DNA of 28,929 nucleotides from Promethearchaeota archaeon (GTDB lineage Archaea > Asgardarchaeota > Lokiarchaeia > Sigyniarchaeales > SOKP01). Where the stretch lies: contig JAEOTP010000094.1 of the NCBI GenBank assembly GCA_016839765.1, positions 1-28,929 of the forward strand. Reading direction: 5' to 3'. The stretch's first letter is position 1. Each line of letters starts with the position of its first letter. Of the stretch, positions 11,317-15,711 are shown piece by piece. Both the position numbers and the translations under genes were made by a program. Under the pieces are notes generated by a model. The model did no database searches, was not told the origin of the DNA, and worked only from the letters and a program-made list of their open reading frames with translations.

Positions 11317-11625
11317 ATGATTGGTGATATTATTAGATTATATAGAATAGGGAGAGAATTGGGATTAACTAGAAAAGATATAAATAAAATTTTATTATTT
11401 GATAATACTAAGCGACCTAAAGAATATACAATGTTATTATTCTTAGTTCTTTTTCTTGGTCTTATTGTTAGTATAGTTATAGCGTTTACATTGCTAAGTT
11501 ATGTGGGTAAAAATACATATCCTAAAGGAGCAGAGTATTCAGCGGTTCAAATCAAGGATTTCAAAAAAGAAAGAAAAAATCATATAATAGAAAAATTTTT
11601 TACAAAATTTAGGAATAAAAGTTGA
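11317..11625 (+). CDS. Small single-TM protein, paralog of 13999-14247; candidate radical SAM substrate A
   Basis: LYRIGRELGLTRKDINKILLFDNT, TM, NTYPKGAEYSAV; GGAGTGA SD-like motif upstream. Confidence 0.8.
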   Translation: MIGDIIRLYRIGRELGLTRKDINKILLFDNTKRPKEYTMLLFLVLFLGLIVSIVIAFTLLSYVGKNTYPKGAEYSAVQIKDFKKERKNHIIEKFFTKFRNKS

Positions 11626-12230
11626 AAACTCTAATAAGCAAAAATAAATATAATAAATATAATAAATATGCTATAATTTTAGCTTTTATATTATTAATCA
11701 CTTTATTTACTCCATTTGCAATTCCTGTTGATCGCGGTATTGACTCAAAAGAAGCCCTCTCATTTGTATGGATTTGGGGTTTATGCTATGGTCAAGGAGA
11801 ATTTTTCTTTTTGATAATGCCGATGGGATTCTTTTTAATCCTTTTCGCAATTCTCATATTAATGAGTTGTTTTGAATTAAAAAAGCATAAACTAAGTCTG
11901 GTTAAATTTGGAGAGCGAGTGTTTATATTTAGTTTTCTTATGATTATAGTTTCAATTGTTTTAATGGCGATTATTGAATATAGCTTCTTATCTTTTTCGA
12001 ATGTACCAATAACTGGGGGAAGAAAAGCTGATTTCTGGTCATATCATCTCCCTGGGTTTGGATATATTGGTGTATTTTTTATTTCGTATCTATTTTTAAA
12101 TGTAAGTTTAGCCGTGATGGGTTATAGTAGAAGCAATTTTTTTCGTTTTGCTATAGCTCTCTTTATAACTACTACATCAATTATGCTATTATTTTCTATG
12201 GATGTTTTGTTTATTTCTGTTTTTCATTAA
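11622..12230 (+). CDS. Hypothetical multi-pass (~5 TM) membrane protein
   Basis: TTG start overlaps the TGA stop of the upstream gene; multiple hydrophobic helices. Confidence 0.75.
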   Translation: MKTLISKNKYNKYNKYAIILAFILLITLFTPFAIPVDRGIDSKEALSFVWIWGLCYGQGEFFFLIMPMGFFLILFAILILMSCFELKKHKLSLVKFGERVFIFSFLMIIVSIVLMAIIEYSFLSFSNVPITGGRKADFWSYHLPGFGYIGVFFISYLFLNVSLAVMGYSRSNFFRFAIALFITTTSIMLLFSMDVLFISVFH

Positions 12231-12379
12231 TATACAAGAGAAGAGGTTCAAATAGAATTCTTACCTTCCTAATAATTTATAGAAAATAATTTTAAATATT
12301 TTATAAAAAAACTTAACTAATAATTATAATTTAAATTAAAAATTCTAATTAAAAAGCAAATGAAAAAGAGGTTATAAAC

Positions 12380-12748
12380 ATGTCAAAAGAAAAAGAGATG
12401 TTGGATGAATTAAAGCAAATAAGAGAGTTATTAACACCAGGTCCACCTCCACCGCCTCCCAAAAACTTGTTAGAAGAATTTAAACATTTTTTAAAATCAT
12501 ATAAAGTCATAGGTCTTGCTGTTGCGTTCATTATGGGGATATATCTAGGTGCTTTAATAGGTGCGCTTGTTACTGACTTAGTTATGCCTATAGTAGAATT
12601 TTTTCTACCTCCTGGTGTAGCATTTGAGAGTTGGACCGTTGGACCTTTCCGAATAGGCCATTTTCTTGGACAACTAATAATATTTATTATTGTAGCTTTA
12701 GTGATTTTCCTGTTAGTAAAACTTACTAAACGAATGGGTCTCGAATAA
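12380..12748 (+). CDS. mscL: Large-conductance mechanosensitive channel MscL
   Basis: LLEEFKHFL (S1 helix), VIGLAVAFIMG...LVTDLVMP (TM1), IGHFLGQLIIFIIVALVIFLLVK (TM2). Confidence 0.9.
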   Translation: MSKEKEMLDELKQIRELLTPGPPPPPPKNLLEEFKHFLKSYKVIGLAVAFIMGIYLGALIGALVTDLVMPIVEFFLPPGVAFESWTVGPFRIGHFLGQLIIFIIVALVIFLLVKLTKRMGLE

Positions 12749-12862
12749 GGCAAATTTTCAAATATTATTTCTTTTTTTTTATTTTCCTTTAATAATCGTA
12801 TTTCTTGTGAAAAGATTTATTAATTAACTTATGATAGTATTATTTTAGTTAAATGAATCCAA

Positions 12863-13975: not shown

Positions 13976-13998
13976 AAAGTAGAGGTGTAATCCTAAAA

Positions 13999-14247
13999 TT
14001 GTTTAAGCAAATTTTTCAATTGTATAAAATAGGAAAAGAATTAGGATTGAATAAAAAGGAGATAAATAAAATACTTATATTTGATAACACAAGGCATCCA
14101 ACATTATACTTAGTTTTACTCATTATAGCTATTGTCGCTTCTGGATTAATAGTGATTATTTTAGGAATAGTAATCTCCAGAAACGTTTACCCCCAGGGTG
14201 CTCTTTATTCTACTGTAAAGAGGAAGAATTTTAAAAGAAAAAGATAA
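13999..14247 (+). CDS. Small single-TM protein, paralog of 11317-11625; candidate radical SAM substrate B
   Basis: LYKIGKELGLNKKEINKILIFDNT, TM, NVYPQGALYSTV; GAGGTG SD-like motif, TTG start, 23 bp after the radical SAM stop. Confidence 0.8.
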   Translation: MFKQIFQLYKIGKELGLNKKEINKILIFDNTRHPTLYLVLLIIAIVASGLIVIILGIVISRNVYPQGALYSTVKRKNFKRKR

Positions 14248-14364
14248 GCAATTTTTAAAGGGAACAAACAATTCTTACATTTAAAAGATACTCTTTAGGT
14301 GTAGTTTTTAGATAATCACATGCTAATAGATTATATTCATTAGAAGAAGGTTTTAATGAGATAA

Positions 14365-15711
14365 ATGAAGTTAAATATAGGCTGTGGAAAAAAGTTTGAG
14401 CCAGGTTACTGTAATATTGATTTATATGAAACCTTAATAGCAGACAAAATAATGTCTGCTTTAAATCTTGAATTTGAGGATAATACAATTGATGAGATAA
14501 AGACAATACACGTTATTGAACATCTTACTTTTTTTGAAGCTATTTATGCCCTTAGTGAATTTTTTCGAGTTTTAAAACCCAATGGAAAAGTAATCATAGA
14601 AATTCCTGATCTTAATAAAGCATGTCAACTTTATTCAAATTCTGACGATGAATTCAAGACACAAATATTGGATTGGATTTATGGGGCACCTCATAAAGGA
14701 TTACAACATAAGTTTTGCTTTCCTTCTTTCTTATTGATTGAAGTATTAGAAAATATAGGATTCATGAATATCAATACAAGGAATTATATAAACTATGAAT
14801 CGATTCCAACAATAAAGTTTGAATGTTTTAAGCCTAGAATCGGGGATGATGATGAAGTTTTCCAAATTTTAACACATATTCGTAAAAAATTGTTAACAGA
14901 AAATCATATTGATTTTTACGATTCCTTTTTGGTTAAAGAACATGAAAATTTGTTAACGTTCTTTTTAATTAAAATGCTTGAATTAAAAAAAAGCGGGAAA
15001 ATTGAGATATTTTTTGAGATAATCATTGAATCGTTAATAAGGTGGCCTCAATTTGTAAAAATATTACTTAGAGTTATTAGCAATAAAAATTATCTATCTC
15101 AAGTGCAGATAAAGCAGATTCGAGAAATCACAGATTTATTGATTGAGGTAAATTATCCAAATATTTTATGTAATTCAGTAATGAAAGCACCAATAAGCCC
15201 TGGAACTCAAAAGGTGGTATTTAAATCAATTGAATCCTTTGCAAAAGATCTTATTAGAAAATTAATGTCTAATATAGATGACAGAGAGAATATAATAAAT
15301 AAATTAACAAAATTATTTGATGAGATAGAATACCCCGAACTAAACTTTTTTACTTCTAAAATTATTGAACAAAAATCACTAGATTATTTTTATATAGGAA
15401 TTAAAGCTTTTTATAAAAAAAATTATAAAAGGGCTTATAATAAATTTCTTAGGGCTGTAAAGCTTTATAGAGATGATTTCTTATATTTTTGGAATTTATC
15501 AAGGGTTTTAGCCAAGTTGAATATGAAAGACCAGGCTATAAGATTTTATAAAAAAACATTGATATGTTTAAGAATCACCAACATTCAATTAAAGAAAGAA
15601 TTGAAAAGCGAAATTAAAAAAGAGTTAATTTGGGTAAAAAATAGGAAAGGTTCATTACCGAAATTTGAGCCAATAATCTCTATTGAAAATTATATCCAAT
15701 TTAAAGTCTGA
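14365..15711 (+). CDS. Class I SAM-dependent methyltransferase with C-terminal TPR-like helices
   Basis: KLNIGCG motif I, HVIEH, EFFRVLKPNGKVIIEIPD; C-terminal AYNKFLRAVKL...YFWNLSRVLAKL...AIRFYKKTL. Confidence 0.85.
   Translation: MKLNIGCGKKFEPGYCNIDLYETLIADKIMSALNLEFEDNTIDEIKTIHVIEHLTFFEAIYALSEFFRVLKPNGKVIIEIPDLNKACQLYSNSDDEFKTQILDWIYGAPHKGLQHKFCFPSFLLIEVLENIGFMNINTRNYINYESIPTIKFECFKPRIGDDDEVFQILTHIRKKLLTENHIDFYDSFLVKEHENLLTFFLIKMLELKKSGKIEIFFEIIIESLIRWPQFVKILLRVISNKNYLSQVQIKQIREITDLLIEVNYPNILCNSVMKAPISPGTQKVVFKSIESFAKDLIRKLMSNIDDRENIINKLTKLFDEIEYPELNFFTSKIIEQKSLDYFYIGIKAFYKKNYKRAYNKFLRAVKLYRDDFLYFWNLSRVLAKLNMKDQAIRFYKKTLICLRITNIQLKKELKSEIKKELIWVKNRKGSLPKFEPIISIENYIQFKV

Follow-up and report, generated by a model that had tools for sequence, protein, structure and literature searches.

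The window analysed here, the entire 28.9-kb contig JAEOTP010000094.1 (28,929 nucleotides) from a metagenome-assembled genome of an Asgard archaeon (Promethearchaeota), encodes a cassette in which a radical S-adenosylmethionine (SAM)/SPASM enzyme (rSAM) stands together with two small paralogous proteins (smallA and smallB) and a protein that joins a methyltransferase to a TPR-like domain (MT-TPR). The in silico analysis establishes the cassette itself, the linkage of its three genes across related genomes, the conservation pattern of the small proteins and the predicted binding of their leader to the enzyme. The small proteins are very likely the substrates of the rSAM, and the three components probably form a post-translational modification cassette with a tyrosine-centred modification, for which excision of tyramine is our tentative choice of reaction. 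The genes and motifs of the locus are the following.

11317 to 11625, forward strand: smallA (102 residues), substrate-like, with a leader at residues 1-35, a transmembrane (TM) helix at about residues 37-63 and the tail motif NTYPKGAEYSAVQIKDF
11518 to 11541, forward strand: core motif YPKGAEYS of smallA, with Y68, Y74 and S75 invariant across 50 family members
11622 to 12230, forward strand: accessory tetraspan membrane protein (multi-TM protein, 202 residues), whose start overlaps the smallA stop by 4 nucleotides (translational coupling), with a claudin/TARP-like predicted fold
12380 to 12748, forward strand: MscL gene (Pfam 1e-15), between the multi-TM gene and the rSAM gene
12863 to 13975, forward strand: radical SAM/SPASM maturase (370 residues), with CX3CX2C at C28/C32/C35 and seven invariant SPASM cysteines
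13999 to 14247, forward strand: smallB (82 residues), substrate-like, with leader residues 4-27 predicted to bind the rSAM
14188 to 14211, forward strand: core motif YPQGALYS of smallB
14365 to 15711, forward strand: MT-TPR (448 residues), a class I SAM methyltransferase (residues about 1-155) followed by an all-helical TPR-like domain; obligatory third component

An earlier note on this DNA had drawn attention to the two paralogous small genes flanking the rSAM gene, and its account of the locus holds: all of its open reading frames lie at the coordinates it gave, the two motif intervals encode the octapeptides listed above, and the enzyme motifs that it quoted are found in the rSAM sequence. 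Its genes are real, but its finding omitted the MscL gene. SmallA and smallB share 45% identity (E 4e-24); smallB begins with a TTG start codon preceded by GAGGTG and is separated from the rSAM stop by 23 bp. A search of the source genome, whose relatives bear the NCBI labels Promethearchaeota, Promethearchaeia or Hodarchaeota, returned no copies of the small protein beyond these two.

The first line of evidence is the linkage of the three genes. Upon searching 134 other genomes of the window's family with a profile of the two small proteins, matches were obtained in 58, usually as tandem arrays of two to five copies, and an rSAM ortholog (57-88% identity) was present in the same genomes, typically 25-60 bp upstream of a small gene. 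When strong matches only are counted, about 53 family genomes carry both genes and about 77 carry neither; in the four discordant genomes (G244, G242, G245 and G253) a gene is truncated at the end of a contig. The earlier note had proposed that the small proteins and the enzyme work together, a link that would fail if the small proteins occurred mostly without the rSAM. This is not what is seen, as the same 53 or so genomes carry both, and the strict co-occurrence, the adjacency across the family and the predicted leader binding described below all speak for the functional link.

The methyltransferase is part of the same unit. All-against-all clustering of the window and 20 fetched loci recovered the small protein (50 copies, one to four genes per locus), the rSAM and the MT-TPR each in 21/21 loci. 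The order of the genes is shuffled (rSAM-small(n)-MT or small-MT-rSAM-small) and the trio is retained. The other neighbours are an AAA ATPase (11 of the 21 loci), MscL (9), a thiolase (9), the multi-TM gene (8) and an LRR-TIR gene (3). Members of the same genus that lack the cassette retain the AAA-MscL...thiolase arrangement, and since these empty sites keep it, the cassette is best seen as an accessory insert in a conserved neighbourhood of which MscL is backbone. MscL, the AAA ATPase, the thiolase and the LRR-TIR protein were considered as parts of the system and rejected on these counts and on the empty sites. In one genome (G003; L079:7063-8131, reverse strand) the rSAM of the cassette is split into two open reading frames of 170 and 130 residues, which may reflect a frameshift or a decaying copy.

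The claim that the methyltransferase belongs to the system is further sustained by its physical ties to the rSAM. In sister clades, the start of the methyltransferase gene overlaps the rSAM stop, an arrangement that indicates translational coupling, and two relatives are methyltransferase-rSAM fusions (P0252, 728 residues, and P0264, 834 residues; E 3.8e-58 and 1.1e-45 with the A5 profile), in which a part resembling MT-TPR at the N-terminus is joined to the rSAM/SPASM domain. Tandem or additional domains are also present in further long relatives, among them P0244, P0263, P0307 and P0313. In the window's MT-TPR, Pfam identifies Methyltransf_11, and TPR_2 falls below Pfam's cut-off (23.9 vs 27 bits); the predicted model, with a predicted local distance difference test score (pLDDT) of 89.7, consists of a class I methyltransferase and a helical TPR-like domain. 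A structure search meant to point to a methyl acceptor matched only generic class I methyltransferases. Of 400 Asgard genomes, 99 are matched by the MT-TPR profile, and these belong to at least 12 families.

The second line of evidence is the anatomy of the small proteins. In an alignment of 50 sequences G12, Y68, Y74 and S75 are invariant, and M1, L15, G16, L17, K20, G71, D81 and F82 are conserved in at least 90%. The leader spans about 30 residues with the consensus LYKIGKELGLxKKEINK...FDN, the tail has the consensus N-T-Y-P-x-G-T-X-Y-S-T-V-K-x-K-D-F, and between them lies an unconserved, uncharged stretch (median 27.5 residues) that represents a variable TM helix. Among the 49 motif-bearing sequences the residue before Y74 varies (L in 23, K in 7, R in 5, Y in 5, E in 3, F in 3, M in 2 and G in 1) and can be likened to the X of the spliceotide motif XYG. 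None of 372 metagenomic homologs of the small protein has a Pfam domain, and their source names are uninformative (hypothetical or uncharacterised, with one stray ABC-permease label). A conserved leader and core beside a maturase, in several diverged copies, agree with what is generally expected of RiPPs (ribosomally synthesised and post-translationally modified peptides).

Related loci show the same units in other settings. In other Asgard families, the rSAM gene is followed by one to four TM-anchored small proteins and then by MT-TPR, and the tail reads TYxPGTxYG[SA]ISPKDF. In Thermoplasmatota, two or three soluble precursors (...GPPxYPGxxYGT[VI]SIxDF) accompany two rSAM genes and MT-TPR, and one WOR-1 bacterium has an MT-TPR-rSAM pair; the system is thus not specific to Asgard archaea, as might have been supposed from the earlier note. 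At another locus (L060) a TM-less peptide of 57 residues ending in ...CYGGQMYGIVSIKDF (C-terminus QMYGIVSIKDF) precedes an rSAM of 45% identity, whose stop overlaps the start of the methyltransferase gene. In a paralogous clade, the rSAM (about 50% identity) has as neighbours B12-rSAM genes and a precursor that carries the same leader (DVYKMGESLGLSRKDID...), continues into six or seven tandem repeats ELYKAGTRYGTISP and has no TM helix; the small-protein profile matches the leader of this precursor once and every repeat separately. The earlier note had seen in the tyrosine site a likeness to XYG, and this is borne out, as relatives from sister clades, Thermoplasmatota and other Asgard families have X-Y-G itself. 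Since the relatives carry X-Y-G, it can be regarded as the common state, and X-Y-S together with the TM helix as a variant of the window's family.

Some of these loci have features of their own. Two of them (L054:685-7371 and L055:864-6235) contain two B12-binding rSAM genes, a second SPASM rSAM and, in L054, a papain-like peptidase; with six or seven ELYKAGTxYGTISP repeats in the precursor, they resemble a RiPP cluster with multiple cores from another archaeon. In Heimdall-type loci the precursors are multi-TM proteins. In particular, in five loci labelled Heimdallarchaeota (L136:1408-2441, L139:1926-2441, L140:158-673, L141:1493-2426 and L144:1428-2431) precursors of 145-174 residues lie upstream of rSAM-MT, with a related leader (LxEVGxLxEVDxxDI), several TM segments, STYPxSGF after the first of them and a C-terminal ...RYGVY or ...MYGxx, so that the two tyrosine motifs are seemingly split by membrane segments.

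The third line of evidence concerns the contact between substrate and enzyme. The rSAM was co-folded with smallB, SAM and three 4Fe-4S clusters in three runs, with three controls, and the pair scored 0.75-0.76 in all three runs vs 0.00 for the best control. Of 80 solved complexes, 58 reach the mark used for such co-folds, as do 2 of 110 mismatched pairs; these counts apply only roughly here because own alignments were used and small molecules were included. At least 50% of the contacts recur between the runs, the pLDDT of the partner is at least 58, and the confident interface pairs smallB residues 4-27 with rSAM residues 168-172, 205-220, 240-241 and 340-342. As a prediction, the co-fold supports binding of the leader to the enzyme. 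In binary spliceases, activation is reported to come from a helix of the leader, lodged where the Y protein binds in other systems (PMC11414181).

As it is the leader, not the tail, that is confidently predicted to bind the enzyme, the small proteins could also be pictured as anchoring or regulatory proteins that bring the rSAM and the methyltransferase to the membrane for the modification of a lipid or another small molecule there. Archaeal lipid-modifying rSAM enzymes do exist, with tetraether synthase (7tol) as a weak match in the PDB (E 1e-9), and the weak sequence matches of the methyltransferase are to phospholipid N-methyltransferases, although these amount to generic Methyltransf_11 similarity. 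We consider such a role improbable, as the homologous leader and tail units of Thermoplasmatota, of L060 and of the repeat-type precursors have no TM helix, tandem arrays of two to five diverged copies and multi-core repeats are typical of precursors, and the tyrosine-bearing tail is the most conserved part of the protein.

The fourth line of evidence is the placement of the enzyme. Pfam recognises Radical_SAM and SPASM domains, and C28, C32 and C35 together with C252, C270, C305, C308, C314, C318 and C333 are invariant in 55 sequences, in agreement with the full SPASM domain of the splicease class and its cysteine sets for two auxiliary clusters. The earlier note had inferred kinship with the PlpX/nif11/GDL maturases, and this stands in that the nearest NCBIfam models are TIGR04103 (nif11-class maturase 3; 180 bits, or 179.6 unrounded, vs a cut-off of 725) and TIGR03913 (GDL-motif maturase; 155 bits vs a cut-off of 592, or 591.75 unrounded), not those of AhbD or NirJ, but both cut-offs are missed by far, and by the curated thresholds the enzyme falls outside the splicease class. 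TIGR04103 is the class of PlpX via IPR026482 (PMC11002830). An exhaustive search provided the 150 nearest 50%-identity cluster representatives of the enzyme, and 30 of them were scanned with NCBIfam: 22 match TIGR04103/TIGR03913 at E<1e-60, the other eight match nothing so strongly, no other model appears at that level, and one clade among the 30 reaches 473 bits. In a FastTree phylogeny of 162 domains the window's clade nests in the radiation recognised by the PlpX and GDL models (support 0.8-0.99).

That the rSAM is instead a cofactor enzyme of the AhbC/D-NirJ type, working on haem or haem d1 and lying beside the small open reading frames by chance, is very improbable. The AhbD model TIGR04545 scores 149 bits (cut-off 500) and the NirJ models 111-136 bits (cut-offs 500-650), not far under the best match, but all of these scores are far below the cut-offs, and no AhbD above its cut-off was found in the source genome or in 400 genomes of the phylum. 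The earlier note would have yielded to a grouping of the enzyme with AhbC/D or NirJ; AhbD-like proteins of Asgard archaea, themselves below the AhbD cut-off and used as stand-ins for characterised enzymes, fall outside the clade. Moreover, the gene is accessory and strictly co-occurs with the small proteins and MT-TPR, and no tetrapyrrole gene is present in the cassette. An AhbD or NirJ identity was rejected on the scores, the position in the tree and the gene context.

Taken together, these observations can be cast into a mechanism in which the small proteins would be the substrates, and the N-terminal block of about 30 residues would serve as a leader, docking in helical form on the cytoplasmic radical SAM/SPASM enzyme. 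The 5'-deoxyadenosyl radical of the enzyme would then modify the conserved tail T-Y-P-x-G-T-X-Y-S-T-V-x-x-K-D-F, the tyrosines being the presumed target, and MT-TPR would methylate the same substrate. The product would be anchored in the membrane through the variable TM helix and, in some loci, would come to lie beside the claudin-like tetraspan partner. The favoured chemistry is a splicease-type excision of a tyramine equivalent at X-Y74-S75, which would leave an alpha-keto-beta-amide with a side chain set by the variable residue X. We favour it, with reserve, because of the nearest enzyme models, the X-Y-G of the relatives and the variable X; the rule for splice sites is XYG (PMC10849128, PMC11626197, PMC10533398).

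Several results weigh against this interpretation. As to the site, a serine follows Tyr74 in 49/49 motif-bearing sequences and in 103/108 further tails, where splicing would lead one to expect glycine; the cores of the window are E-Y-S and L-Y-S and thus differ from the X-Y-G of splice-site precursors, and no report of splicing at X-Y-S was found in the literature. The invariance of two tyrosines would also fit a crosslink. As to the enzyme, the distance from both curated models and the narrow gap between the best of them and AhbD have been given above, and the tree that places it contains no experimentally characterised splicease and relies on an AhbD-like outgroup below its own cut-off. As to contacts and topology, a position of the tail in the active site is not predicted with confidence by the co-fold, whose confident contacts are those of the leader alone; the flanks of the TM helix are both positive (median net charge +4 on the N side and +5.5 on the C side); and a single TM helix puts leader and tail on opposite sides of the membrane, so that modification could take place only before insertion. 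As to the partners, the 21 loci have no dedicated leader protease or exporter in common, at odds with what is expected of a RiPP system, and the structural neighbours of MT-TPR, being generic class I methyltransferases, point to no acceptor.

Part of this evidence would suit the same cassette and substrates with a non-splicing rSAM, one that forms a tyrosine crosslink (C-C or C-O, between Y68 or Y74 and a neighbour) or carries out a hydroxylation or a desaturation, after which the methyltransferase would O-methylate the product to give a crosslinked or quinone-like group on a membrane-anchored peptide. This is possible but, in our judgement, unlikely. Its case is made by the two invariant tyrosines, five residues apart, together with G71 and S75, by the non-canonical X-Y-S site and by an enzyme only distantly related to PlpX-type models. 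MftC and PqqE, which perform other chemistry on tyrosine peptides, are also among the matches (at most 110 bits), and the spliceotide systems described in PMC11414181 and PMC11626197 have no obligatory methyltransferase. On the other hand, the nearest curated models are those of the splicease class, and in relatives the site is X-Y-G with an X that varies, as is characteristic of splice sites. In addition, the spacing of the tyrosines differs by one residue between Asgard archaea (Y-x4... YPSGTxY) and Thermoplasmatota (YPGxxY), which argues against a fixed Tyr-Tyr ring. With the same low probability, the rSAM and MT-TPR together would make a tyrosine-derived modification other than the known tyramine excision, such as a methylated crosslink or a redox-active or reactive warhead, displayed at the membrane and in some lineages accompanied by the claudin-like tetraspan protein. 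If true, this would define a new class of membrane-anchored, ribosomally made, modified proteins common to Asgard archaea and Thermoplasmatota. Tyramine excision, on its side, keeps our tentative preference, and for either chemistry the natural TM-less homologs offer easy test substrates.

The multi-TM gene appears to be an optional partner of the system rather than its protease. The earlier note had reported its coupling to smallA, and the 4-nucleotide overlap confirms it, but the gene is accessory only, in view of its presence in 8/21 loci. A search of the window's family for the protein gave 15 matches at E<=1e-20 in 14 genomes, and the eight multi-TM genes that were compared with small-gene coordinates all lie directly downstream of a small gene. 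The protein has no Pfam or NCBIfam match, and the Atlas returns unnamed clusters only. Its AF2 model (pLDDT 82, from seven sequences only) shows four predicted TM helices, a small beta-sheet within loop 1 and, in addition, a fifth helix. Foldseek gives E 0.013-0.08 for this model, and VIA aligns it with GARLH4, TARP, GSG1L, claudin and LHFPL5 chains at Z values that reach 14.8 (159 residues, rmsd 3.0 A); all 50 VIA rows shown belong to the mostly eukaryotic claudin/TARP/LHFPL superfamily, one of them a de novo designed claudin fold, whereas at the sequence level no similarity to this superfamily is seen. A role as leader protease or exporter was considered and found no support, with no family match and a claudin-like predicted fold. 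In genomes that lack the cassette, weak paralogs (E 1e-7 to 1e-12) lie elsewhere. The occurrence of a predicted claudin-like fold in an Asgard archaeon may merit a separate study.

A few other features of the window are worth recording. The MscL homolog within the cassette has an N-terminal extension with a PPPPPP run. At 9243-9851 (forward strand) a microbial rhodopsin of 202 residues is encoded (Pfam Bac_rhodopsin 1.4e-23), short like the schizorhodopsins of Asgard archaea. On the 3' side of the cassette, at 15829-18027 (forward strand), lies the gene of a 732-residue LRR protein with a C-terminal TIR domain (Pfam LRR_14 2.5e-60, TIR_2 1.4e-8).

As to its reach, the methyltransferase marker is present in about a quarter of the 400 Asgard genomes and in some Thermoplasmatota, and the substrate of the Lokiarchaeia-type family has gained a membrane anchor and the X-Y-S site. 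Should the reaction be splicing, the scope of backbone beta-amino-acid chemistry would come to include archaea, membrane proteins and a new site rule, of use in protein engineering; otherwise, the cassette would represent a new radical-SAM tyrosine chemistry. Either way, to judge from the genomes, the cassette would stand for a widespread and uncharacterised protein modification of archaea. No published description was found in the literature on Asgard archaea or Lokiarchaeota together with SPASM, RiPPs or spliceases, the survey of splicease diversity by Scott et al. 2022 (Chem 8:2659) being outside the coverage.

Among the closest known systems are the binary spliceotide systems RhaX/RhaA, RcsX and RasX of Rheinheimera (PMC11414181, PMC11626197), in which an rSAM/SPASM maturase likewise lies beside its precursor or precursors without a separate RiPP recognition element (RRE) or Y protein. 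There, the leader helix binds or activates the enzyme, whereas here this is predicted only. A variable residue before the tyrosine is found in both, and relatives of the cassette have X-Y-G as well. The cassette differs in its distant enzyme (180 bits), in X-Y-S, in the TM helix between leader and core, in the obligatory MT-TPR that is fused to the rSAM in some relatives, and in its archaeal hosts. Indeed, in the literature examined the described spliceotide systems are all bacterial and their products are soluble protease-inhibiting peptides.

The type I systems of Pleurocapsa, PlpX/PlpY/PlpA and PcpXYA (IPR026482/TIGR04103), share with the cassette the enzyme superfamily, the domain make-up and the presence of several precursor paralogs per cluster. 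The cassette, however, lacks a PlpY-like gene, a Nif11/NHLP leader (the small proteins match no Pfam or NCBIfam model) and an epimerase, and its substrate is anchored in the membrane. Second among the models, for the enzyme as for its neighbours, comes the GDL-motif maturase TIGR03913 ('rad_SAM_trio'); NCBIfam names and describes it as tied to a GDL-motif peptide, whereas motif and partner genes differ here.

MftC (mycofactocin) and PqqE (pyrroloquinoline quinone) are likewise rSAM/SPASM enzymes that act on tyrosine in a small ribosomal peptide encoded nearby. Their sequence matches to the enzyme are much weaker (110 bits; PqqE E 1e-5 in the PDB), their systems require an RRE of the PqqD type, and their motifs differ (C-terminal GVY and E-x3-Y). 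Against this background, and judged from sequence, what appears to be new is a splicease-like RiPP or protein maturation system that combines an obligatory MT-TPR, a membrane anchor and an X-Y-S site in archaeal hosts.

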